64,000 nucleotides of DNA from an uncultured Pseudomonadales bacterium (GTDB taxonomy: Bacteria > Patescibacteriota > Microgenomatia > UBA1400 > UBA1396), in contig CAZRAG010000001.1 of the NCBI GenBank assembly GCA_964598125.1, positions 8,810 through 72,809 on the forward strand, in the 5' to 3' direction. The notes under the pieces were generated by a model, which was not told the origin of the DNA, did no database searches, and worked only from the letters and a program-made list of their open reading frames with translations. Shown here in pieces: positions 397-27,396 of the stretch. Each line of letters opens with the position of its first letter. The first letter of the stretch is position 1. A program made the position numbers and the translations under genes.

Positions 397-468
397 TCCC
401 CTGTAGCTCAACGGTAGAGCAGGAAGCTGTTAACTTCAAGGTTCGTGGTTCGAATCCACGCGGGGGAG
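397..468 (+). tRNA. tRNA-Asn (anticodon GTT)
   Basis: Hand-folded cloverleaf. Acceptor stem 397-403 pairs with 461-467 (7 bp, one G-U). D arm is gctc/gagc. Anticodon stem ggaag/cttca carries loop cTGTTAa with U33 and A37, giving anticodon GTT. T arm is cgtgg-TTCGAAT-ccacg, with discriminator G468. The 3' CCA is not encoded. Confidence 0.85.
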
Positions 469-6991: not shown

Positions 6992-8860
6992 TTACCCCAC
7001 CAACCTCTCTCTAAAATACTCCCTCGTCTCTGCATCAGCAGAAAAAATTGAGCAGCTCTTCATACCTCGGCTCATCAATGTTCGATAGGTGTTTTTAATA
7101 AGCGTATCAGCACGTTTTTGTGCTGCCTCCGGGTCCTCCTCATACGCCTTCTTATAACCTTTCAACGACTTGTCGAACTGATCTCGAGCGCCAGGATTCG
7201 TAACAACCTCACCATCTCTGACTATCAAATCAGGGCCAATAATGACGCCTACATGTTGTAACTCCAAGCCTTGGGCCGTGTGAATACAGCCCACTTGATC
7301 GATCGATTCTGGATTAATAATCCAAGTACCACCATGTTTTGATAAGTTCCACTGCATTTGGAATCCATATTCAGGGAACTCAATATCATACTCATTCGGA
7401 TTGTTCTTTGACTTCCACCGCCAACAGTATCCGGCCAGCATTCGAGCCCGATTGTCTGGTTTATTTAAAGTCTCAATATGCTGCTTTAAAAGCATCGGAT
7501 CATCAAAAACACGAAAGTCATACTCGGATTTTTCAAGCCGAATATTGGCCGTTGGTGTTATGCCCAAAGTATTGTCCAACCATGCTAAGTAACCATCCGA
7601 ACCATTGCACCGAAACTGTGATTCCAGTTCAAAAGAGTGAACATCTGCTCCATACCACTTCGCCCACTTTTCAATCTCCGCGACCGAACCCATATCTTGC
7701 CAAGTGACTTGTTGTGATTCATCAATAAAGAACACGGACACCTTAGCGGCACTTATGATTTCCTTTACCTGATTCTTCCCAAAATTGCTAAAAAGACCAC
7801 TTTTCTCTACTAAGCGGTGGGCCTCATCCGTAATCAGGGCATCGTACTCATTATCTGCAGAAGAAATGAAAGAGCCTGAACCGGTAAAGAGAGTATTAAT
7901 CTCTGATTGTTTGTAGGAGTTAGTGAGCTTTGCTTCAAAAACTTTCCGGGGCGCACTATTTTTTGTTACGTAACGGACATTCTTGCGGTGATCAATAATG
8001 CCAGCAGCTAGCAGGTTAATGGCGACCACAGACTTTCCTGTTCCTGGGCCACCCCGAATAATTATGACTTGCTTGCGAGCATGCTTGTCTGCATCCCGAA
8101 TGGCGCGAGAAGCATACTCAAAAACAATTTTTTGAGAGTCTACGAGCATGAAGGCTTGGTTCCCTTGCAGCATATCAAGCAATTTATTCGCCAACTCTTC
8201 TGTTGGCTTGTAGTTTGATTCCGATAGTACACGCAAAATGTTACAAGAATCCGACACAATACCGGCAGATTCGAAATGCTTAATCAGCTTTTCTCGATCC
8301 TGTTTTACAAATAGGGGAGACTGGGACCAATAGTGTCGGTAAAAATCACACAAAAGTTCGTTATTGGATTCACAATTATGAAGGTAGGCACAGGTACGAA
8401 TATCAATATTATGTTGTGAAACACTTTCGTTGAAGTTGCGCAAAAGGTGCGCGTAGGACAAAGCTTTCTGGGAGGGATGATTTGTTTCAGTATACCCACC
8501 GCCAAGCCAAGTCCGCACGATTCCATCCATGTCCGTTCTCTCAACTCGCGCCCACTGCTTGAGCTCCACAATATACACCTTCTGTTCACCCATAGATGTT
8601 TCACCAGCAAGAATAAAATCGATGCGCTTCTTGGTAAAGGGAATACCAAATTCTATCGCAACCGTTGCATCATCATGAAGATCAGCACTATTAACTACAT
8701 GGTACATGGCATTACCAATTGAGTTCTGCCACGCTTTGTACTCAGAGGATTGAGGTTTAATATTTATGAGTAGTTTTTCGCGAACTTGCTGGCGGACAAT
8801 ATCTTGGATATCTGGGGCATCTTGAAGAAACTGCTTCTTCGTAGCCTGGTAAACAATCAT
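6992..8860 (-). CDS. DUF2075-family protein: N-terminal PD-(D/E)xK nuclease-like module plus SF1-like ATPase (Schlafen-like helicase domain)
   Basis: 622 aa. The N-terminus has ...RIDFIL...(13 aa)...IVELKQW, a D...ExK restriction-endonuclease-like signature. Walker A is IIRGGPGTGKSVV, Walker B is LITDEAHRL, and a UvrD_C-like motif is IHTAQGLELQHVGVIIG. The start overlaps the MazG-like stop as ATGA. Confidence 0.75.
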   Translation of the reverse strand: MIVYQATKKQFLQDAPDIQDIVRQQVREKLLINIKPQSSEYKAWQNSIGNAMYHVVNSADLHDDATVAIEFGIPFTKKRIDFILAGETSMGEQKVYIVELKQWARVERTDMDGIVRTWLGGGYTETNHPSQKALSYAHLLRNFNESVSQHNIDIRTCAYLHNCESNNELLCDFYRHYWSQSPLFVKQDREKLIKHFESAGIVSDSCNILRVLSESNYKPTEELANKLLDMLQGNQAFMLVDSQKIVFEYASRAIRDADKHARKQVIIIRGGPGTGKSVVAINLLAAGIIDHRKNVRYVTKNSAPRKVFEAKLTNSYKQSEINTLFTGSGSFISSADNEYDALITDEAHRLVEKSGLFSNFGKNQVKEIISAAKVSVFFIDESQQVTWQDMGSVAEIEKWAKWYGADVHSFELESQFRCNGSDGYLAWLDNTLGITPTANIRLEKSEYDFRVFDDPMLLKQHIETLNKPDNRARMLAGYCWRWKSKNNPNEYDIEFPEYGFQMQWNLSKHGGTWIINPESIDQVGCIHTAQGLELQHVGVIIGPDLIVRDGEVVTNPGARDQFDKSLKGYKKAYEEDPEAAQKRADTLIKNTYRTLMSRGMKSCSIFSADAETREYFRERLVG

Positions 8861-16506: not shown

Positions 16507-16722
16507 TTATGGGAAAATATCCTGCTTATACTCCAAAATATCTCCTGGCTGGCACTCCAAGGCCTGGCAAATTGCCTCAAGCGTAGAGAACCGAATCGCT
16601 TTGGCTTTACCGGTTTTTAAAACAGAAAGATTGGCGAGAGTGATTCCAACTTTTTCCGACAGTTGCGTCAAACTCATCTTGCGCTTGGCGAGTAAAACGT
16701 CAATGTTAATAAGAATTGCCAT
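16507..16722 (-). CDS. XRE/Cro-type helix-turn-helix transcriptional regulator (YozG-like)
   Basis: 71 aa with HTH MSLTQLSEKVGITLANLSVLKTGKAKAIRFSTLEAICQALECQPGDIL. Shows the classic pairing with an upstream DUF2975 membrane protein. Confidence 0.75.
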   Translation of the reverse strand: MAILINIDVLLAKRKMSLTQLSEKVGITLANLSVLKTGKAKAIRFSTLEAICQALECQPGDILEYKQDIFP

Positions 16723-16731
16723 ACATGTTCC

Positions 16732-17214
16732 TTAGACCGTTAAGTCATTCTCCGATTTAAGATTAACTGCACTCTGTAAAAGTGTTTGAAAAATGCCAGC
16801 AGCCGTGGCAACAACACTTGCCGCCAAAATAATGAGCAGCCCCAGCAAAACCACTCCTGGCGCGTCATCTTGTTCGCCAAAAATCATGATTTTGGGTAAA
16901 GCCAAGAGCATAAATCCTACACTGGCTACAAAACAGAACTTAATAGTACGCAAGGTGTTGACCGCTGCTTGGGAAAAAACTTTATTATGCTCAATATAAC
17001 CAAGGAGTTTCACTGCTTGATACAAGGCGGTAAAAAAAGGCAGAGAAGCTACATACATGTAAAGAATGACCGGATCGGCATAAATGTGAAAGAGATCGAG
17101 ATTGGCGGCTCTGCCTTCTGTTTGGGGAAACCAGATGAGAGCGAGCAAGTAGACAATACCGATAAGTAAAATAATAAATTTCAAAAAGAGTGTTGAATGG
17201 TGTTTGATTCTCAT
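16732..17214 (-). CDS. DUF2975-family membrane protein
   Basis: Start ATG at 17214 with SD ggagg 4-5 nt upstream. Four TM helices. Genomic partner of the YozG-like HTH gene. Confidence 0.6.
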   Translation of the reverse strand: MRIKHHSTLFLKFIILLIGIVYLLALIWFPQTEGRAANLDLFHIYADPVILYMYVASLPFFTALYQAVKLLGYIEHNKVFSQAAVNTLRTIKFCFVASVGFMLLALPKIMIFGEQDDAPGVVLLGLLIILAASVVATAAGIFQTLLQSAVNLKSENDLTV

Positions 17215-17401
17215 ATTCCTCCATTTGGTAATTGTTGGTATGATAGTCAATTATTTATTGTTTGTCAATATATTGTTATCGCTATTCGATATATTTTTAA
17301 TATACTCATTACTCCTTTTAATCCTATAGCATTCCATTTATGACTCTTTCTGATATACTTCACCCCGTGAGGGCACTTCATCACGGAAAAGTGCTTTTGT
17401 C

Positions 17402-17768: not shown

Positions 17769-17805
17769 GGGCGCTACTGTAACAGGTAGCGCCCGCGTTC
17801 GTTTT
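17769..17805 (+). terminator. Intrinsic terminator-like hairpin; second member of the conserved pair
   Basis: gggcgctac-tgtaacag-gtagcgccc followed by gcgttcgtttt. Stem changes relative to 15270 are compensatory (cc/gg to ac/gt). Confidence 0.5.
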
Positions 17806-17818
17806 GTCCTGTACTCAA

Positions 17819-18517
17819 CTAAGCAAGAAGAGGAATCTGCAAAACGGTATTGGGATCGGGAAACAAAAGACTATTTTTGGGCAAATCCTTTACCGTGGAA
17901 TACCCAATAGGGGGGGCGCCTTTTTTTGGGAGTGATGTCAGAAGTTGAATGTGTACATGCCGGGACCAACCACCGTTTTCGTCATTTTTGTAATCTCCAA
18001 GAGAAGCAAACTGTTGACCAGCTTTTAGCTCCAATCCTACTTTAGGAAGTAGAGAAGAGAGGTGCCCATAAAACGTAAAAAAATGTGCCTCACCGAGCGA
18101 ATGTTCCAAAATGCAGTAATTACCGTAGGAATGGGAACTGTTTTCTCTATCAGCGACAACGACCCTTGCCTGATAGGGAGCGTACACGGGTGCTGTGTCT
18201 TTGGTAAACAGATCGATGCCTAAATGTATGGTCCGGCCCTCTAGGGCAATTCGCGACCCGCGAAGCATCTCAATTCTGTTTTCTTGATAACGACCAATGA
18301 GAACAGTCTTGTGAGCAGTGTGCAAAAAAGTGTCATTAAAGATTTGTCTGTTTTCGGGAAGCTTAGGATCTGTTCCTTGAGCGATTGCGTCTTCAAAAAA
18401 AAGGTGAATATTTTTATATTTTGGCAAATCCTTTGGAATTTGATGAAAGTCAAGAAAAACAATCTCCGACTGATGTCTCATACCTTTTATTACTTCAAAA
18501 GATGGATTTGCGATCAT
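17819..18517 (-). CDS. M23-family metallopeptidase
   Basis: HxxxD (HLGIDL) and HxH (HVHIQL) zinc-ligand motifs with typical spacing. Confidence 0.7.
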   Translation of the reverse strand: MIANPSFEVIKGMRHQSEIVFLDFHQIPKDLPKYKNIHLFFEDAIAQGTDPKLPENRQIFNDTFLHTAHKTVLIGRYQENRIEMLRGSRIALEGRTIHLGIDLFTKDTAPVYAPYQARVVVADRENSSHSYGNYCILEHSLGEAHFFTFYGHLSSLLPKVGLELKAGQQFASLGDYKNDENGGWSRHVHIQLLTSLPKKGAPPIGYSTVKDLPKNSLLFPDPNTVLQIPLLA

Positions 18518-18552
18518 ATCAATATATTAACCCAATACCTTTCCGGAAGCTA

Positions 18553-19401
18553 TTATTTTTCCTTTTTGTGCATATAGTTCAAAAAGCGAAAGAGCAGAAA
18601 GCTTGCCACCACTACAAAAAGAATGTCTAGTCCCGGGAGTTTATTGACCCAAGCCGATATTGTTACCGCAACATTTTGAATGGTTTGAGTAATACTTTCT
18701 TCACTACGATCCATGCTTAGCTTCCCTGACTGTGAAAGAAAAATGGTTAAAAGACCAATCCCGGCAAACATCATAAATGAGACAAGATTGGACAGGGTAA
18801 TCATGTGTGTTTTCCCAAAGTACTGAACTTCTCGCACTGGTCGACGCAGTATTGGTTTTTCTAAGAAATTACGCGTATCAATAAATACGCTCGCCAAGTA
18901 AAGAGGGGTAACCATACCCAGAACATACGAGAATCCAACCAGTAATGATTGAGCCGTCGTCGGACTCAAGTTTGAAAGGGCAAGAACACCTATTAACACC
19001 GGTGCACAACAGGCACTGGTCACGCCAGAAAAGATTCCCAAAATATAGGTTGAAAGGGGATCATCAGCTTGCTTGGCAAACTGGAATCTTGGCATAGGTA
19101 ACTTAAAACCCAAAAGCGAACTAAAACCAACAAAGATGAGAAACAGTCCACCAATGGCATATGTTTGGTCATGTGAATTGAAGAAAAATTGACTGAGAGC
19201 TTTGGCACCTAAAACCACGGGCAACATCACGGTGAATATGCCAAGCGAGTAAATAAAGGTCATTAAAACTACTCGCTTTTTTTCCTTAAAGACATTGGCA
19301 AAATAAGCGGGCAAAAGAAAAGTGATACAGCACGGAGCAAATAAGGCGACCATTCCCGCAATGAATGAAGCGAGCACTGAAAGCTGAAACAAGGTATCCA
19401 T
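18553..19401 (-). CDS. Cytochrome c biogenesis CcdA / DsbD-family transmembrane thiol-disulfide transporter
   Basis: 282 aa and polytopic. Two membrane-embedded Cys pairs (FAPCC and SACCAP) in a DsbD_2-like arrangement. Confidence 0.65.
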   Translation of the reverse strand: MDTLFQLSVLASFIAGMVALFAPCCITFLLPAYFANVFKEKKRVVLMTFIYSLGIFTVMLPVVLGAKALSQFFFNSHDQTYAIGGLFLIFVGFSSLLGFKLPMPRFQFAKQADDPLSTYILGIFSGVTSACCAPVLIGVLALSNLSPTTAQSLLVGFSYVLGMVTPLYLASVFIDTRNFLEKPILRRPVREVQYFGKTHMITLSNLVSFMMFAGIGLLTIFLSQSGKLSMDRSEESITQTIQNVAVTISAWVNKLPGLDILFVVVASFLLFRFLNYMHKKEK

Positions 19402-19402
19402 A

Positions 19403-20170
19403 TTACTTCTTTTTAATTACATTGGCGGTGATTTGGGCTTCGATCTCAGAAAAATTGGGGCTATCGGTCTCAATATAAATCGTTCTACTGAGTTCCCCTA
19501 AGTCGGTATCGTCCTTGTGTACCGCTGGATCGAATGAAACCTTCACCGTTGTACTTTCATAGGCACCTAACTCCTCCTTTTCAATAGTGGCTTTGGTACA
19601 GCCACAAGAGGTTGATACCCGAGTAACTTTCATGGGGAGAGGAGAGTAATTGGTTAAGGTAAAGTCGGTTGTTGCTACATAACCATAGATGACGGTACCA
19701 AGATCCTGTTTTTGAGGCCATAACTCAACTGAGACATTCTGTTCTTTGAAGGCATTCGTCCCACCTTCTAGATCGTACACGTTGGTATAGCCCAACTGAG
19801 CAATTTCCTGACTGGCCTGAGAGCTCATACCTCCGGAGCGACAATACACCAGAATGGGTGTGGTCTTATCTTGTGGTAATTTTGAGAGATTGTTTTGTAT
19901 TTGGTCAAACGGGATAAAAGCGTCTGTACCTGGTATATGTGTTTGTTGCGGGGTATGAACATCAATAACAAATGCTTTTTCTTCTTCCAAAAGCTGTCCG
20001 AACTCTTGAGAATTTACACGCTTGACTGCAGGACTGGATGACTCCTCTTCACGGCGATCGCTGGTATTATTTCCCAAAGTTGGCATTTTTTCTGCGGTCA
20101 CCCACCATAATCCTATGCCAGCTAAGAACACAACAAGGAGGATACCAAGAGAGACAGTTATTTTATTCAT
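19403..20170 (-). CDS. Secreted rhodanese-domain protein fused to a C-terminal DUF1573 domain
   Basis: Signal/TM N-terminus. Rhodanese active-site loop YCRSGGMSS. The C-terminal beta-sandwich has a SCGCT motif typical of DUF1573. Confidence 0.65.
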   Translation of the reverse strand: MNKITVSLGILLVVFLAGIGLWWVTAEKMPTLGNNTSDRREEESSSPAVKRVNSQEFGQLLEEEKAFVIDVHTPQQTHIPGTDAFIPFDQIQNNLSKLPQDKTTPILVYCRSGGMSSQASQEIAQLGYTNVYDLEGGTNAFKEQNVSVELWPQKQDLGTVIYGYVATTDFTLTNYSPLPMKVTRVSTSCGCTKATIEKEELGAYESTTVKVSFDPAVHKDDTDLGELSRTIYIETDSPNFSEIEAQITANVIKKK

Positions 20171-20176
20171 ACTTAT

Positions 20177-20761
20177 CTATTGCTTCACTACCGTGGCTGT
20201 TACTTGGAAAGATAATGAAGGATTACTGGCGTCATTGGTGTTAATGGTGACGGTTCGGGAAATAGGTCCAACACCACTTGGTCCATGAAAGGCCGGATCA
20301 AACTCCACCAGTAATTCTGCCTTCTCTCCAGGATTCACTTCAAAAACACTGCCATTCTTTTCGTGCATGCTAAAGCGCTTTGAGGATCGACCCTGAGATT
20401 GAAGTTGAGCCGTAGTACACATACACGATGTTTGAACATCATAGAGTTTAAGGGGAGAGGATCCTTTATTTTCTATAGTAAATGTCTTGCTGACAACACC
20501 ACCATCAATGTCTATGGTTCCCCAATCATGTCTGGTATTTTCTATCTGAGTAGTAACCTGACTATCTGCCACCACTTGTGTTGTGGCACCCAATCTTGCC
20601 CCAAAGAAAATGGCACCACCTAGGAGTAAGACTGTAACAACAATAATTCCCAGTAAAAATGAATCAATACCTTTTTTTGTTTTTTGTTTTTTTACTTTGG
20701 TAGTACAGCAATTCTGTTGCATATGTATTTCTCCTGTTATGGTTGATATTTCGTTGGTCAT
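20177..20761 (-). CDS. DUF1573 domain protein, membrane-anchored
   Basis: TM anchor followed by FTIENKGSSPLKLYDVQTSCMCT, a DUF1573 signature. Confidence 0.6.
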   Translation of the reverse strand: MTNEISTITGEIHMQQNCCTTKVKKQKTKKGIDSFLLGIIVVTVLLLGGAIFFGARLGATTQVVADSQVTTQIENTRHDWGTIDIDGGVVSKTFTIENKGSSPLKLYDVQTSCMCTTAQLQSQGRSSKRFSMHEKNGSVFEVNPGEKAELLVEFDPAFHGPSGVGPISRTVTINTNDASNPSLSFQVTATVVKQ

Positions 20762-20767
20762 GATTCC

Positions 20768-21796
20768 CTAGGCCCCACAGCCCCCACCGCCCTGTGGTAT
20801 TTCGGGCAGGCTTTGAATTTGTTGACGAGCTTGCTGATAACCTTGGGCACTGGAATATTCTTTCCCTAACACAATCTTGGGGTCGACTTGATTCCAATCT
20901 TGTCCTTGTTCTTTAAAGTAGGTAGCCAGATCCATATACGTTTGAGGGAACCAATAAGCGTTAACTTGCAAAGCAACTCGGTACATTTCCTCTTTGGAAA
21001 CTCCATTTTTAGCCATGAGTTCAAGCAATCCGAGCATAGCCATACCATGATTACAATCAGGGAAATGGGTTGAGTTTCCACAACATGGCCGGTAAATACC
21101 TCTGGAGACTTCGTCAACAAGCGCTTGTTGTTCACTTGATAGCATTACATAGGCGTGTTTACTATAGTGATCAAAGCCTGGCCCTTTAGCTAAAGACCAA
21201 CCTCCGGTGGAAGCAAACTGACTCGCGTCACCACCATATTCGGGATCAGTCATTTCTCCCATCTCCAGGATTTCATTCTTGTTTCCTAAACCGAATGCCC
21301 AAAGGATATCAAGGATAAAGCGACTATTTTCCTGGTTGATGACGATTGGTTCAGTCACGTTACCAGTGAGAATCTGTTCATCTTGATTGGTGAGTCCACC
21401 TTCGAAAAGAGCTCGAAATTTTGCTTCATCGATCACACCGTCGTCGATCATTTTCTTTCCGAGATCTCCCCAGGTTATGGGGAGGGCAAGACCTTCTGAC
21501 GGGAGTACTTGTTGACTAAGACTATTGGTATCAATAGAGGCAGATGAATTATCTGGGTTCAACGTAACCGATTGAGTTTGATTCGTATTCAAAAGAGATT
21601 GTAAAATCTGTAATTTCGGCGTGATACGAACGTCAAATAACTGTGTCAAAACAATTATGGCAAACAGTAATAAGGCCATCGCTTTCCAGAAATTGCCCTG
21701 CTCCATGAGTTGTGGAACTTGGGAAACCATTTTTTTGTTACTTGTTTCGTTGTTGTCGGTCATGAATCTCCTTTGACTGATAGATGCCAGGAGCAT
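20768..21796 (-). CDS. Membrane-anchored hypothetical protein with a Cys-rich C-terminal domain
   Basis: 342 aa with an N-terminal TM helix. Cys cluster RPCCGNSTHFPDCNHG and a C-terminal GGGGCGA. Its stop abuts the next gene's start. Confidence 0.5.
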   Translation of the reverse strand: MLLASISQRRFMTDNNETSNKKMVSQVPQLMEQGNFWKAMALLLFAIIVLTQLFDVRITPKLQILQSLLNTNQTQSVTLNPDNSSASIDTNSLSQQVLPSEGLALPITWGDLGKKMIDDGVIDEAKFRALFEGGLTNQDEQILTGNVTEPIVINQENSRFILDILWAFGLGNKNEILEMGEMTDPEYGGDASQFASTGGWSLAKGPGFDHYSKHAYVMLSSEQQALVDEVSRGIYRPCCGNSTHFPDCNHGMAMLGLLELMAKNGVSKEEMYRVALQVNAYWFPQTYMDLATYFKEQGQDWNQVDPKIVLGKEYSSAQGYQQARQQIQSLPEIPQGGGGCGA

Positions 21797-21831
21797 AACA
21801 AGTAGAAGATGAAAAGAAGATGAAATATGAG

Positions 21832-23190
21832 TTAAGGGAGGGTAATGGTCACGGTTGAGCCCTTACCGACCCGAGACTCGAAATGAATGGTGCCTCCCAT
21901 ACTTTCAATCACCGCTTGAGAAATAGACAAACCTAATCCAGAACCAGCAGCCTTTGCCTGTGTTCCTCGGAAAAATCTAGAAAATATCTTATCTTTGTCT
22001 TGTGCAGTCACCCCAATTCCCGTATCAGCTAGAGTGAGGAGAATTCCATTAGGGGATTGACTCATCTCGATAGTGATCGACCCCGCTTGCCGGTTATAGA
22101 TTACGGCGTTGTGAGCAATGTTACTTATAGCCCGTAAAAAGAGTGGCCTGTTTCCCCGGATTGATATGTTCTTTTCAATCTTTGCGTGGACAGTAATATT
22201 TTTTTGCTCAGCCAAAGTCGAAGTAATCTCTACAAGCTCTGAAACAAGTTCGGAAAGAGAGAAGGTTGTCAATTCTTGATTATGGCTGTCTACCTTTGAG
22301 AGAAAAAGCAAATCCTGAATAGTTTCGTTAGTACTCTCAATGACATTTTGGAGTTCTGTTTTCTGGCGTAAGCTGATTGGCAAATTCTCTATTTGTGCAT
22401 GTAAAACCGCGAGTGGTGTTTTGAGGGTGTGAGCCGCATCTGAAAAGAAAATTCTTTCTCGAATAAAAACATCTTCCAGTTGGGCAAGCATGTGGTTGAG
22501 AGTTTTCTGAATCGTGGCTAACTCCTCCGTAGGTTGAGCGAGCTCTATCCGACGTGACAAGGATGTGCTGGTATTAATCTTCTGAGCCTGCTGAGCAATA
22601 CTCTGTAGTGGAGCCAACTGCTTTCGTAATAATCTATAACCCAAATACGTTAAGGGAACTATGCAAAACACGATGATGAGACCAACAATAAAGAGAATAT
22701 TTGTAAAGGTTGAGGTGAGAATCTGAGTAGAATAGCCAACTGCCAAAATACCTTTCCCGGCATTGATTTGCACCGGAACAGCGGCAAAGCGAATGCCACT
22801 CTCAGTAAAGTGGCTGGGAACAGAGTCGTTTACGTTACTTGAAGAAAGAATGCCTTGTAATTGATGCTCAGTCACAACCGCAACATCAGGACTATTGGTT
22901 TCTAAAATAGGTGAACCATCAGGTGAGAGCAGAACTATGGTCATACCTTTAGCACTTACCAGATTCTTCAATAACTCTTGGCGTTGCTCATTCTGAAACT
23001 GCTGCACAATCTGGGCTGCCTCGGTAACCACAATATGGACATGGTGATCAATCTGACTTTGCAACGTAAACCAAAAAAGAATACTCGTAGAAAGCAAGAG
23101 AAGAGAAACAATTGTTATGATCGAGCCTACATACCAGAGAGCAAGTTTACCCTGTAGACTCGTCCTGAAAGCGCTAAGAGTCTTTTTCAT
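21832..23190 (-). CDS. Sensor histidine kinase (HAMP-HisKA-HATPase)
   Basis: Two TM helices, an H-box (AAHTLKTPL), and C-terminal N/G-box motifs (GSGLGLSI). Confidence 0.8.
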   Translation of the reverse strand: MKKTLSAFRTSLQGKLALWYVGSIITIVSLLLLSTSILFWFTLQSQIDHHVHIVVTEAAQIVQQFQNEQRQELLKNLVSAKGMTIVLLSPDGSPILETNSPDVAVVTEHQLQGILSSSNVNDSVPSHFTESGIRFAAVPVQINAGKGILAVGYSTQILTSTFTNILFIVGLIIVFCIVPLTYLGYRLLRKQLAPLQSIAQQAQKINTSTSLSRRIELAQPTEELATIQKTLNHMLAQLEDVFIRERIFFSDAAHTLKTPLAVLHAQIENLPISLRQKTELQNVIESTNETIQDLLFLSKVDSHNQELTTFSLSELVSELVEITSTLAEQKNITVHAKIEKNISIRGNRPLFLRAISNIAHNAVIYNRQAGSITIEMSQSPNGILLTLADTGIGVTAQDKDKIFSRFFRGTQAKAAGSGLGLSISQAVIESMGGTIHFESRVGKGSTVTITLP

Positions 23191-23195
23191 CTTTT

Positions 23196-23864
23196 TTACG
23201 TCCTAATAATGTATCCTTTTCCACGGATAGTCGTTATGAATCCCTTGTCAGTGTGTTCACCAATCTTTCTTCTCAGATTTCTAATATAAACGTCAATAAC
23301 ATTGGAAAAAGAGTCAAAATCATTTCCCCAAATATGTTCCATGAGCATAGTCCTTGTTACCACTTGGTTGCTATGAAAGGCAAGATATTCAAGGAGGGCA
23401 AATTCTTTAGCGGTTAAATCAAGTTCGTGATTATTAATGGAGGCCTTATGCTCAGACGGTTGAATAATCAGTTCCCCTAGGGTAATTATGGGGAGGGTAT
23501 GCTGACTGTTTCGACGAATAACGGCCCGTACCCGAGCCACTAATTCATTGCTATCAATAGGTTTCGGAACGTAATCATCTGCACCTAAATTGAGTCCCTT
23601 GATTCGATCCTCCACTTCTCCTCGAGCGGTGATAATAATTATGGGAGTCTGAAATGATTTCGCTCTCAATCGCTCCAAAAAGGAGAGTCCACTCCCATCA
23701 GGAAGGTTAATATCCAGGATAAGGCAGTCATATTCATTGACATCTATTTCAATTTCTGCCTTTTCCAAGGAGTGAGCAAGATTAACGGCAAATCCCTCTT
23801 TATAAAGTGTTTTTCTCACATTTTCTGCGAGAGCAAGATCATCTTCTACCAGGAGTAATTTCAT
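23196..23864 (-). CDS. OmpR-family response regulator
   Basis: Receiver domain (LVEDD...DINLPDGSG) plus a winged-helix C-terminus ending GKGYIIRT. Confidence 0.85.
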   Translation of the reverse strand: MKLLLVEDDLALAENVRKTLYKEGFAVNLAHSLEKAEIEIDVNEYDCLILDINLPDGSGLSFLERLRAKSFQTPIIIITARGEVEDRIKGLNLGADDYVPKPIDSNELVARVRAVIRRNSQHTLPIITLGELIIQPSEHKASINNHELDLTAKEFALLEYLAFHSNQVVTRTMLMEHIWGNDFDSFSNVIDVYIRNLRRKIGEHTDKGFITTIRGKGYIIRT

Positions 23865-23949
23865 ATTTTGGCAATAATTAAAACATATTCGCTAATTTGA
23901 ATATGTATACTATACCATGCAATGAGAACTCTCTTTACCTAATGTAAAT

Positions 23950-24390
23950 TTATTCTAACCGCCCTAAAATTCTCTCCATTTGATCAATCTCTTCTTGTTG
24001 GGAAGAAATGATCTGAGAGCAGAGTTGTCTCAACTCAGAATCATTGATTTGTGACCGTTCACACATCAAGATAGCTCCTGAGTGGTGAGGAATCATGGAA
24101 CGAATAAACTCTTTATCCTCAATAAAGGACTGCTGACGGATAAAGAGAAAGGCCAAGAAAAGTACGAACACACCTATTGCTCCCACGGCTCGAAGCGCAT
24201 TTTTCTGCTCATACATGGAGCCCATGAGAAACACTTCGATAATAAGCATAGGAGCCGTCATTACGGCTGCCATATAAAAGTTATTGAGACTGGGATATAT
24301 ATTGTCCCAGGTGTTCACCATGGCGTACATAAGAATATACATCGCAATAAAGTGCAAAAGAGACATTACGGCCAAACGATTGATATGCAT
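23950..24390 (-). CDS. DUF305-family membrane protein
   Basis: C-terminal MIPHHSGAILM motif characteristic of DUF305; N-terminal TM helices. Confidence 0.55.
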   Translation of the reverse strand: MHINRLAVMSLLHFIAMYILMYAMVNTWDNIYPSLNNFYMAAVMTAPMLIIEVFLMGSMYEQKNALRAVGAIGVFVLFLAFLFIRQQSFIEDKEFIRSMIPHHSGAILMCERSQINDSELRQLCSQIISSQQEEIDQMERILGRLE

Positions 24391-24416: not shown

Positions 24417-24980
24417 GTGAATTTTGTGAAAAGCGAGAAATACCCATGTAAGAGTATTTTGAATTTTCCTCTCTCTTTTCGATATACTGATTCTATGAAC
24501 AAACTAAACACTGATGTCTGTTGCCAACAATTTGAACCAGCCAAATTCCATGAAAAAACTCATGTCTGGAAAAACAAACTCTTTCTTCAAGATGACGTAC
24601 TTCAATTCATGCATATTCCCCTCAACATGGGTTCCGTGATTAAAAGAATGTTTGCCACAATCGAAAATGCTAAAGCCATGCCCAAAACTGAAGACTTCTT
24701 AATGCTCTGTTATGATCCGTCACCATGGAAATCACAGATACACATGATCGTTACCAAAGAAATACCAGATGGAAAAATGGTCAGCTTATCGGGCACCTAC
24801 TTAAGCAAAGTGTACGATGGGCCCTATAACGCCGTCCCGGAGTGGATCAAAGATATGGATACCTACGTTGCCCAAAAAGGGAAGAGCATTAAAAAATACT
24901 ATTTCCATTATGCTTATTGCCCCAAATGTGCCAAAAAATACGGGCATAACTATTGTGTGGCTTTTGCTCAGATTGATTGA
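24417..24980 (+). CDS. Hypothetical Cys-containing protein
   Basis: 187-aa ORF with a C-terminal CPKC...C motif. It directly abuts a deacetylase gene remnant. Confidence 0.4.
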   Translation: MNFVKSEKYPCKSILNFPLSFRYTDSMNKLNTDVCCQQFEPAKFHEKTHVWKNKLFLQDDVLQFMHIPLNMGSVIKRMFATIENAKAMPKTEDFLMLCYDPSPWKSQIHMIVTKEIPDGKMVSLSGTYLSKVYDGPYNAVPEWIKDMDTYVAQKGKSIKKYYFHYAYCPKCAKKYGHNYCVAFAQID

Positions 24981-26664: not shown

Positions 26665-26895
26665 ATGACTCCATTCCTCTTTGTATTTTTACAAGCATGG
26701 GCAAGGTGCATGAAAATTGCATATGCACACCATAAGAAGTTGGTATGAATTCTCCAAATAAAATAGAGCTTTCCCTGGATGATCTTATTGAGTTGAAGAG
26801 AGTATGACTGTCCTATTACTCCCTCTTTACGAGGATCTCACTTGCTAACGGTAATGTTCATTTGTGAGTCCAAAGAATAAAGAGAAAGGAAATAT

Positions 26896-27396
26896 ATGTC
26901 TGAAACAGTCATAGGATTATTCACTGATAGTAAGCGAGCCGGAGAAGCAGTCAGTGATTTTATTGACCTTGGGATAAGCCAGGATATTACGGTTATCGCC
27001 AAAGATGAGATGAATGGGGAAGTTACTACCCATAAAGTGCAAAGTGACGTCAGTGATGGAGCAGCTGCTGGCGCAGCAACCGGGGCGGTCATTGGAGGAC
27101 TTACCGCTCTCCTTGTTGGGGCCGCTTCGTTTACCCTCCCCGGTGTCGGTCTGGTTGTTTTGGGTCCATTGGCTTCAGTTTTAACGGGAATTGGAGCAGG
27201 CGCCCTTACTGGAGGGGTCGTGGGGGCGCTCATTGACTGGGGTGTCCCAGAGGAATCAGCTAAGATGTATGAAGAACGCCTGCAGGCGGGCGATGTGCTC
27301 GTCGGCGTTTCCACCGACCGAGTTTCCGTGGATGACGCGCGAGCCATTTTTGACCGATACGGGGCAACTTCTACCCAAACGTTTTATAACGAATAA
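26896..27396 (+). CDS. General stress protein 17M / YflT-like glycine-zipper protein
   Basis: N-terminus MSETVIGLFTDSKRAGEAVSDFIDLGI and C-terminus DVLVGVSTD...ARAIFDRYGA both match the YflT domain pattern. A central Gly/Ala zipper is present. Confidence 0.6.
   Translation: MSETVIGLFTDSKRAGEAVSDFIDLGISQDITVIAKDEMNGEVTTHKVQSDVSDGAAAGAATGAVIGGLTALLVGAASFTLPGVGLVVLGPLASVLTGIGAGALTGGVVGALIDWGVPEESAKMYEERLQAGDVLVGVSTDRVSVDDARAIFDRYGATSTQTFYNE

Follow-up and report, generated by a model that had tools for sequence, protein, structure and literature searches.

What is controlled by a two-component system that stands at the head of a row of cysteine-bearing envelope genes in a patescibacterium? The question is raised by a 64-kb stretch of DNA (contig CAZRAG010000001.1, positions 8,810 to 72,809), called the window below, from a member of the Patescibacteria, the candidate phyla radiation (CPR). 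On its minus strand an OmpR/PhoB-type response regulator (RR) and a sensor histidine kinase (HK) are followed by a membrane-anchored protein of an uncharacterised family, here named P3, a DUF1573 protein, a rhodanese-DUF1573 fusion, a CcdA-like membrane protein and an M23 peptidase. An earlier note on this DNA had given the seven genes in this order, and all of the open reading frames (ORFs) were found where it had placed them. It had proposed that they form an envelope thiol or sulfur pathway under sensor control. The analysis described here shows that the row, apart from the peptidase, is a widely conserved CPR operon. On balance, its product is probably an extracytoplasmic thiol relay, induced by a metal that is probably copper, which defends the CPR cell surface.

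The first line of evidence is synteny. A genome scan for P3 returned at least 555 species-level loci, of which the best 80 were fetched (L001-L080). Neighbours were counted within 5 kb of P3 in these 80 loci, and the counts are lower bounds, 27 of the loci being incomplete. Analysis by tblastn and ORF clustering found the order RR-HK-P3-DUF1573 (one to three copies)-[rhodanese-DUF1573]-CcdA to be collinear in most of L001-L010 and L013, which belong to Microgenomates/WWE3-type genomes. Parcubacteria-type loci have the order DUF1573-CcdA-like-P3 without a two-component system. Across the loci, P3 is 46-73% and the CcdA-like protein approximately 33-80% identical to the window proteins. A DUF1573 gene lies beside P3 in 55 loci, with every copy co-oriented with P3 (74/74), a CcdA-like gene in 51 and a rhodanese in 12. 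This arrangement of the core genes is far beyond chance. The conserved core consists of RR, HK, P3, DUF1573, rhodanese-DUF1573 and the CcdA-like gene, with the rhodanese as an accessory and P3 as the constant hub. The co-oriented module under two-component control that had been claimed is thus borne out for the core, and the absence of any conserved association elsewhere, which the earlier note had named as grounds for giving up the idea, applies to the M23 gene and not to the core. Could the genes nevertheless be unrelated, independently transcribed and adjacent by accident? A promoter-like element does separate HK from P3, and neither the M23 gene nor the nearby DUF305 gene is a conserved neighbour. 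The core, in contrast, is collinear across Patescibacteria classes and co-oriented, has gaps of 1-6 bp and shows fusions among P3, rhodanese and membrane Cys domains. Accidental juxtaposition is therefore scarcely credible, and for the core genes chance adjacency is effectively refuted by the synteny and the fusions.

What kind of protein is the hub? The earlier note had treated P3 as a bystander, yet it is the constant core of the module. It had also been called Cys-rich. Only four cysteines are present in its 331 amino acids, all four of them invariant, and it is better described as motif-bearing. C238, C239, C248, H250 and C340 (ORF numbering) do not vary in 82 sequences, and the motif reads PCC-x8-C-x-H. 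Every C-terminus has a Gly-rich run and then C-[GS]-X-COOH, in most cases C-G-[AVIT], and the window protein ends in GGGGCGA. P3 has no Pfam match even at E = 10, no NCBIfam match and no match in the PDB by phmmer or profile. The protein collection holds more than 7000 homologues, and all those with a named source come from Patescibacteria/CPR. A profile search of 1.84 billion cluster representatives found 664 clusters at 50% identity.

The AF2 model of P3 (predicted local distance difference test score, pLDDT, 84; predicted template modelling score, pTM, 0.74) consists of a helical ectodomain and a disordered C-terminal tail. The ectodomain may resemble CcmH, whose periplasmic domain is a three-helix bundle, in its fold, while searches for homology were negative. 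Foldseek of the model against the PDB found no match, hhalign against E. coli CcmH gave a probability of 0.5%, and the CcmH/CycL/NrfF family PF03918 gave no match at E = 10. The P3 motif is RPCC-x8-C-x-H rather than the LRCxxC of that family. The resemblance raises the question of whether the operon is a remnant or variant of the thiol-reduction branch of cytochrome c maturation, in which CcdA, a thiol relay and a CcmH-like protein would serve a haem protein. The CcdA homology, the putative CcmH-like fold of P3 and the public CcdA annotation of homologues would fit such an origin. P3, however, has neither CcmH sequence homology nor LRCxxC, a scan of the neighbour families turned up no CcsBA/ResBC, CcmF or other maturation gene, and the two-component control is of a metal type. 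To our knowledge, CPR bacteria are also generally without respiratory cytochromes. We regard this origin as very unlikely.

P3 has repeatedly been joined to other domains. One protein carries a cytoplasmic HMA domain that is connected to P3 through a transmembrane (TM) helix (P0368), three carry a rhodanese (P0380, P0381 and P0428), and one a CopI-like cupredoxin with H...C...H...M type-1 copper ligands (P0503). P3 is also fused to neighbour family c10, with a TM CxxC and a cytoplasmic CC (P0373), to neighbour family c5, with a TM CCxHH (P0378), and to a polytopic GCxVCG membrane domain in at least six representatives (P0382, P0388, P0393, P0410, P0413 and P0433). This last domain is N-terminal and about 200 amino acids long, reads G-C-x-V-C-G...P-x-x-G-L-E-I-K and has no Pfam or NCBIfam match. 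An apparent fusion of AAA_14 with P3 that has no TM segment (P0434) is probably a gene-call artefact and was not used. The fusions suggest that P3 may draw on membrane cysteine conduits that can replace one another, and on domains that bind copper or transfer sulfur. A bolder proposal is that P3 represents a class of its own among extracytoplasmic cysteine enzymes or carriers, seen to date only in Patescibacteria. Its SoxY-like Cys arm would then shuttle a covalently or coordinatively bound species, which could be Cu(I), sulfane sulfur or an adduct of Cu and S, between the buried PCC-x8-C-x-H centre and the rhodanese, the cupredoxin, HMA, the DUF1573 CxC and the Cys-pair conduits. This proposal is speculative and, at present, improbable.

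The partners of P3 have conserved reactive residues of their own. P3, the DUF1573 protein and the rhodanese-DUF1573 fusion each begin with a positively charged N-terminal tail that is followed by a single TM helix; by the positive-inside rule, their soluble domains are predicted to face outward. The DUF1573 protein carries its Pfam domain and is modelled as a PapD/ASH-type sandwich (pLDDT 88). Its CxC (SCMCT in the window) is conserved in 98% of sequences, a Met-His in 84% and a further His in 97%. Judged from strand order only, these residues would lie in alternate loops and hence at the same end of the sandwich. Close members of the family have, in addition, a conserved cytoplasmic N-terminal CC tail. 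The literature that mentions DUF1573 assigns it no function. Marine DUF1573 homologues have been reported as selenoproteins, with the U of a UGC at the CxC motif (PMC9312934; PMC13188914), which argues that the site is reactive, in redox chemistry or metal binding. In the fusion, PF00581 scores 51.5 bits against a cutoff of 22.2 and the rhodanese loop reads C110-RSGGMS. The catalytic C110 and the CxC of the DUF1573 part (SCGCT) are kept in 13 of 15 sequences.

The CcdA-like protein matches Thermus thermophilus CcdA (5vkv) over residues 6-215 (phmmer, E = 5e-7). It has a six-TM core in which the first Cys of each of two pairs, C24 (APCC, TM1) and C131 (CCAP, TM4), aligns with a catalytic Cys of CcdA, as would be expected of a member of the CcdA/DsbD superfamily. 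Conservation of the CC pairs is 90-100% and that of H77 94%, and the protein ends in an extension of about 70 amino acids. By Pfam the assignment falls short, DsbD_TM scoring 17.9 bits against a cutoff of 27.1. Some close homologues carry a precomputed PF02683 assignment. Homologues across CPR are 73-83% identical, and public sources annotate homologues as cytochrome c biogenesis CcdA. The DUF1573 domains with CxC, the rhodanese and the CcdA-like protein that the earlier note had read from the letters thus hold up, with an essentially invariant CxC, the rhodanese Cys and both CcdA catalytic cysteines retained. At five loci a TlpA/peroxiredoxin-like protein of thioredoxin fold with a CxxC is found beside the CcdA-like gene instead of DUF1573. 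Its gene lies between the CcdA-like gene and P3 in L032, L033, L055 and L059, and before the CcdA-like gene in L050. A TlpA-like protein in the place of DUF1573 fits an electron relay.

Would the cysteine pairs pass electrons, or would they pass a metal ion? In a relay resembling the Mer system, Cu(I), Hg(II) or Ag(I) would move along the DUF1573 CxC and P3, the CC pairs of the CcdA-like protein and the cytoplasmic CC tails, either for import and subsequent P1B export or for sequestration. Like MerT, MerC, MerF and MerP, the proteins combine vicinal or CxxC cysteines in the membrane (here the CC pairs of TM1 and TM4, with the conserved H77), cytoplasmic Cys pairs such as the N-terminal CC tail of DUF1573, and an outward Cys-pair partner. 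The neighbour designs c10 (TM CxxC and C-terminal CC), c5 (TM CCxHH) and c9 (C-terminal CC), which we liken to MerF/MerC/MerT, point the same way and occur fused to P3, and an HMA-TM-P3 fusion exists. The LysE/DsbD superfamily includes metal transporters, and a second CcdA-like type has its best match, a weak one, in ArsG. Homology to Mer proteins, however, does not go beyond a faint match to MerE (E = 0.12); the transporter is a CcdA homologue in which both catalytic cysteines align with those of a bona fide electron transporter. A thioredoxin-fold TlpA-like protein takes the place of DUF1573 in some loci, neither MerR nor a cytoplasmic reductase of the MerA type is found in the neighbourhoods, and an import of copper for detoxification would make little evident sense. 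A metal relay of this kind is thus unlikely.

Whichever species is passed on, the surroundings of P3 speak of heavy metals. At least one recognised metal marker, such as a P1B ATPase, a CsoR-family repressor or DUF411, is present in 62 of the 80 loci. P1B ATPases alone occur in 55, with the TM6 motifs CPH (18), CPC (18) and CPD (10) and with N-termini that carry HMBD or HMA domains or are His-rich. We estimate that a random 11-kb segment of a 1-Mb CPR genome would contain a P1B ATPase by chance in approximately 1-3% of cases. CsoR/RcnR-family repressors are found in 19 loci, and their best NCBIfam match is the copper sensor RicR. They had been considered as clean evidence for copper and were downgraded to a generic metal-sensor family on account of the x-C-H-H fingerprint of most copies. 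DUF411, which we take to be the CopG family, is encoded in nine loci. Small unannotated membrane proteins with CxxC or CC motifs (c3, c5, c9, c10 and c12) also recur among the neighbours. The pointers to copper in particular are the CPH ATPases, the cupredoxin, DUF411 and a CopR-like box described below.

Two further gene sets were observed next to P3. In about 20 loci a c4/c5 pair lies beside the module (e.g., L010 8893-9866, L042 6203- and L056 4759-). Of the two, c5 is small, polytopic and membrane-bound and carries SCCAH(Y/H) in a TM helix, whereas c4 is secreted and rich in beta structure, carries GGHH(R/F) and matches DUF5643 weakly. In L045, L046, L052, L053, L057, L064, L074 and L017, P3 is preceded by DUF411, c12 (N-terminal HCPLC) and c10 in the absence of DUF1573 and CcdA, with L017 and L057 carrying only part of this set. 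The DUF411-c12-c10 set suggests that the cysteine conduits are interchangeable.

The same surroundings bear on the sulfur chemistry that the earlier note had emphasised. A rhodanese could load sulfane sulfur onto the arm Cys of P3 (GGCG), which the CcdA-like protein would reactivate in the manner of SoxV, for sulfur acquisition or for persulfide or sulfide production. The SoxY C-terminal arm is GGCGG, and P3 likewise has its antepenultimate Cys after a Gly-rich run; in sox clusters, thioredoxins and Ig-fold carriers stand beside the CcdA homologue SoxV and a rhodanese, and here too a CcdA homologue and a rhodanese co-occur. Fusions of rhodanese with P3 exist, and CsoR-family regulators can act as persulfide or sox regulators (PMC8643695; PMC10318464). 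TsoB, a rhodanese/DsbD fusion selenoprotein, was considered as a homologous system and rejected, its matches to the rhodanese and the CcdA-like protein being weak (E = 4e-4 and 5e-3); as weak matches they are still counted in favour of sulfur. Unlike SoxY, which is a beta sandwich, P3 is helical and anchored at its N-terminus, and no SoxZ was identified to accompany its GGGGCGA arm. The rhodanese is optional, being limited to the 12 loci mentioned above, and none of the neighbour families scanned was recognised as SoxAX, SoxB or another sulfur-oxidation protein. Above all, the metal context of ATPases, HMA, cupredoxin and DUF411 is overwhelming. A sulfur carrier is accordingly quite improbable, and the emphasis on sulfur gives way to a heavy metal, probably copper. 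What remains reasonable in the pathway first proposed is its thiol-redox part. The emphasis on sulfur and the inclusion of the M23 peptidase are without support and the link to metals had been missed, while the copper assay suggested by the earlier note was the right lead.

How would such a system be switched on? The RR matches Response_reg (PF00072) with 100 bits and Trans_reg_C (PF00486) with 94 bits. The HK has two TM helices that enclose an extracytoplasmic sensor of about 120 amino acids, followed by HAMP (24.5 bits, cutoff 25) and HisKA (24.7 bits, cutoff 26.9), both marginal, and HATPase_c (PF02518, 87 bits). With their genes 5 bp apart, the two form an OmpR/PhoB-type two-component system. 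RR orthologues of 58-72% identity are found upstream of HK-P3 in L001-L010 and L013, and the copy in L014 is 54% identical. The best and only full-length NCBIfam match of the HK is the heavy-metal sensor kinase family TIGR01386 (194.1 bits against a cutoff of 292.55, residues 11-443), and the next family reaches 147 bits over the catalytic half only. A DHHxH motif directly after TM1 is shared by 12 of the 13 sequences aligned, the exception being L014 with NHHLQ, and other His positions of the sensor domain are widely conserved. This pattern is suggestive of metal sensing, and only suggestive.

Between HK and P3 lies a conserved box. OmpR/PhoB regulators classically bind to direct repeats that are spaced with an 11-bp phase. 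The box in the window is an exact tandem of two copies of TTTCATCTTCT, with a -10-like TATGCT 8 nt downstream. The pattern TTCATCTT-N3-TTCATCTT, again with a -10-like hexamer 8 nt downstream, recurs in 12 related loci, each time in the interval from the HK stop to the P3 start and amid flanking sequence that has diverged. In the fetched loci the exact 16-base pattern was found at the HK-P3 position and nowhere else, with one copy each in L003-L007 and L009 (L081 also matches and is the window's own sequence), and the window as a whole contains one exact copy. The reverse complement of the box has the GAAGAT core and the 11-bp phase in common with TGAAGATTTnnTGAAGATTT, the CopR box of Corynebacterium glutamicum that was proven by electrophoretic mobility shift assay (PMC3140484). 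We therefore propose the box, on the strength of its conservation, as a putative regulator-dependent inducible promoter for the genes from P3 through CcdA. Independent transcription from internal promoters, with internal terminators, had been named by the earlier note as speaking against a common pathway. A promoter-like box does sit between HK and P3, and internal terminators are not supported; such a box is better read as a sign that the neighbouring regulator controls these genes than as evidence against a functional link. The 85 bp that precede the RR gene contain a perfect 8-nt inverted repeat (ACATATTC-N8-GAATATGT, positions 23883-23906), which could be the operator of the RR-HK promoter.

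Taken together, the CcdA homology, the substitution by TlpA-like proteins, the putative CcmH-like fold of P3, the P3 fusions and the invariant Cys motifs point to a thiol relay. In the relay favoured here, a CopS/CusS-like HK would sense metal outside the cell through its His-rich sensor and phosphorylate the RR. The RR would then bind the tandem TTCATCTT repeats in place of a -35 element and switch on P3, DUF1573, rhodanese-DUF1573 and CcdA. The CcdA-like protein would move reducing equivalents from the cytoplasm across the membrane by way of its TM1 and TM4 cysteines, and the anchored DUF1573 CxC domains and the rhodanese Cys would act as outward relay partners, in the role that the thioredoxins TlpA, ResA and CcmG have elsewhere. 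P3 would be the terminal effector, with its CcmH-like helical domain bearing PCC-x8-C-x-H and its SoxY-like C-terminal Cys arm, and would bind or reduce copper or repair surface thiols that copper has oxidised. Cu(I) could also be handled directly, by the vicinal CC pairs and by the Cys/His/Met constellations, and redox and metal-binding roles may be combined. What the loci and models display is the gene content, the synteny, the conserved motifs and operator, the fusions and a likeness of fold that is tentative; which signal starts the response, which way electrons or metal would flow and what P3 would finally act on are inferred.

Several observations weigh against this relay or against copper as its metal. 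The doubled Cys in both half-sites of the CcdA-like protein is atypical for an electron-transporting CcdA and reminiscent of Mer carriers. By its score the HK stays outside the curated heavy-metal subfamily, and the RR reaches only 189.2 bits against the heavy-metal family TIGR01387 (cutoff 279.2), no better than against PmrA, RppA or PhoB. Most of the CsoR-family copies have x-C-H-H and not the Cu(I)-type x-C-H-C, and the P1B ATPases include CPC and CPD types, so that Zn, Cd, Hg or Ag, rather than Cu, could be involved. Finally, the window itself has no P1B ATPase, by a tblastn search with the representatives of that cluster.

The proposed relay has relatives among known systems. Its logic matches that of the DsbD-CcmG-CcmH cascade. 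In common with that cascade and with CcdA-ResA, it has both CcdA catalytic cysteines, a membrane-anchored relay partner and a terminal helical protein of perhaps CcmH-like fold. It differs in having no CcmH homology, in having PCC-x8-C-x-H and a Cys arm in place of LRCxxC, in the absence of haem-handling genes among the scanned neighbours, and in its metal-resistance context. Scs systems are copper-induced thiol oxidoreductases that are fed by the DsbD-like ScsB (PMC10907172; PMC3322552). The likeness to Scs of Salmonella, Proteus and Caulobacter lies in a copper-linked, stress-inducible system in which a DsbD-superfamily protein feeds extracytoplasmic Cys partners, some of which bind Cu(I). 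Here, in contrast, the partners are the DUF1573 CxC, the rhodanese and P3 rather than thioredoxin-fold proteins, none of which is encoded in the window operon. The transporter is of the minimal CcdA type with doubled Cys and without an ScsB N-terminal domain, control is by a dedicated CopRS-like two-component system, and the host is a CPR bacterium. The relation to Scs is thus one of analogy only. As to CopRS/CusRS, the C. glutamicum CopRS regulon (cg3281-cg3289) includes the thioredoxin-like TlpA (PMC3140484). The two systems resemble each other in the heavy-metal kinase family as best match, in the 11-bp-phased GAAGAT repeat and in envelope thiol proteins within the regulon. Scores below the cutoffs, a box at the -35 position of the effector operon and the lack of a multicopper oxidase or ATPase in the window operon set the present system apart.

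The features of the locus are collected in Table 1. Two starts were corrected. P3 begins at 21763, preceded by an AAGGAG ribosome-binding site and in agreement with its homologues and the public gene call of 331 amino acids; the DUF1573 gene begins at 20722, with an AGGAG site and homologues of 180-181 amino acids. With these starts, the intergenic gaps from RR to M23 are 5, 68, 45, 6, 1 and 35 bp.

Table 1. Positions in the window of the operon genes, the adjacent DUF305 gene and the putative control elements.
Feature	Position	Strand	Basis or remark
OmpR/PhoB-type response regulator (RR)	23196..23864	-	Response_reg + Trans_reg_C
Sensor histidine kinase (HK)	21832..23190	-	HAMP, HisKA, HATPase_c
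P3, uncharacterised family, N-terminal anchor	20768..21763 (ORF 21796..20768)	-	no Pfam/NCBIfam model
Membrane-anchored DUF1573 protein, Ig-like	20177..20722 (ORF 20761..20177)	-	PF07610, 54 bits
Membrane-anchored rhodanese-DUF1573 fusion	19403..20170	-	PF00581 51.5 bits, PF07610 53.8 bits
CcdA/DsbD-superfamily membrane protein	18553..19401	-	phmmer to CcdA 5vkv
M23 metallopeptidase	17819..18517	-	PF01551, 52.6 bits
Membrane protein, one DUF305/CopM-like half-domain	23950..24390	-	PF03713, 48 bits; NCBIfam CopM-domain match
Tandem 11-nt direct repeat, putative RR box	21804..21825	-	between HK stop and P3 start
GC-rich hairpin, 10-bp stem	17769..17794	.	25 nt past M23 stop, between convergent genes

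The hairpin beyond the M23 gene is the only intergenic terminator-like site of the region and is likely the end of the transcription unit. Internal terminators were considered and rejected: nine terminator-like sites were found where 7.8 would be expected, and the other eight lie within coding sequence. Apart from the box between HK and P3, promoter-like matches occur at chance frequency and inside genes. An Rfam scan of the 64-kb window returned a single tRNA gene (397-468, plus strand), and no riboswitch or leader close to the operon.

Where does the conserved module end? The M23 gene, which had been counted as a member, has no match in the 80 related loci. Its product has the HxxxD and HxH motifs of the family, while its first 60 residues, as read from the sequence, show neither a signal peptide nor a TM segment, and it looks cytoplasmic. 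With domain and motifs present and the export signal missing, it is not recognisable as an envelope peptidase. In NCBIfam it is matched best by the M23 region inside PRK06148-type multidomain proteins. It is regarded as an adjacent passenger gene, possibly co-transcribed, outside the conserved module. At the other end, 85 bp upstream of the RR gene, the DUF305/CopM-like protein carries a MIPHH motif. DUF305 homologues (cluster c31) that match the window ORF at E = 5e-7 adjoin a P1B ATPase in L023, L060, L066 and L079. A tblastn search of the 80 loci with the window protein itself found nothing at E <= 1e-5, and no such gene is found beside the RR in the closest relatives. It is likely an associated metal-homeostasis gene outside the conserved core.

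Other genes of the window were noted in passing. Divergent from the DUF305 gene, with approximately 27 bp between the starts, is a gene for a PF20603 'Bacterial hydrolase' protein with a C-terminal CPKC...C (24417-24980, plus strand, 184 bits). A DUF2975 membrane protein and then a 71-amino-acid protein that reads like a helix-turn-helix regulator (16507-17250, minus strand) lie past the convergent terminator and are unrelated to the operon. A 622-amino-acid protein with a Schlafen group 3 DNA/RNA helicase domain (6992-8860, minus strand; PF09848, E = 2e-97) may be defence-related. At 26838-27396 two ORFs of more than 160 amino acids overlap almost entirely on opposite strands; the plus ORF has DUF1269 and YflT matches, and the minus ORF is therefore probably spurious. 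As to the genomes of the related loci, the public metagenome-assembled genomes (MAGs) of L001, L002, L012, L017, L024, L029 and L031 are labelled 'uncultured Pseudomonadales' or 'Gammaproteobacteria'. Their locus content and closest named relatives (Levybacteria, Woesebacteria, Roizmanbacteria and WWE3) suggest that these labels are wrong.

What does the operon mean for the biology of the CPR? Envelope thiol or metal defence under two-component control is of a known kind. New are the hub family P3, which has so far been seen only in CPR, the relays that are not thioredoxins and the doubled-Cys CcdA. A literature search found no paper that joins Patescibacteria, copper and CcdA. The genomes of CPR bacteria are tiny, and hardly anything of their envelope biology has been characterised by experiment. 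In this setting, the occurrence of the module in at least 555 species-level genomes at the identities given above implies that it is under strong selection or is often transferred. A large family without a Pfam or NCBIfam model receives a proposed role and a putative operator, both open to testing, and the DUF1573 CxC gains a functional context as a relay partner or metal site beside CcdA. If the copper-thiol reading is true, metal-redox defence of the Scs/DsbD type would extend to the CPR with a completely different set of proteins, and the module would provide metal-stress markers for CPR populations in groundwater and wastewater. Should P3 prove to be a shuttle, it would represent a cell-surface copper-sulfur chemistry without a characterised counterpart.

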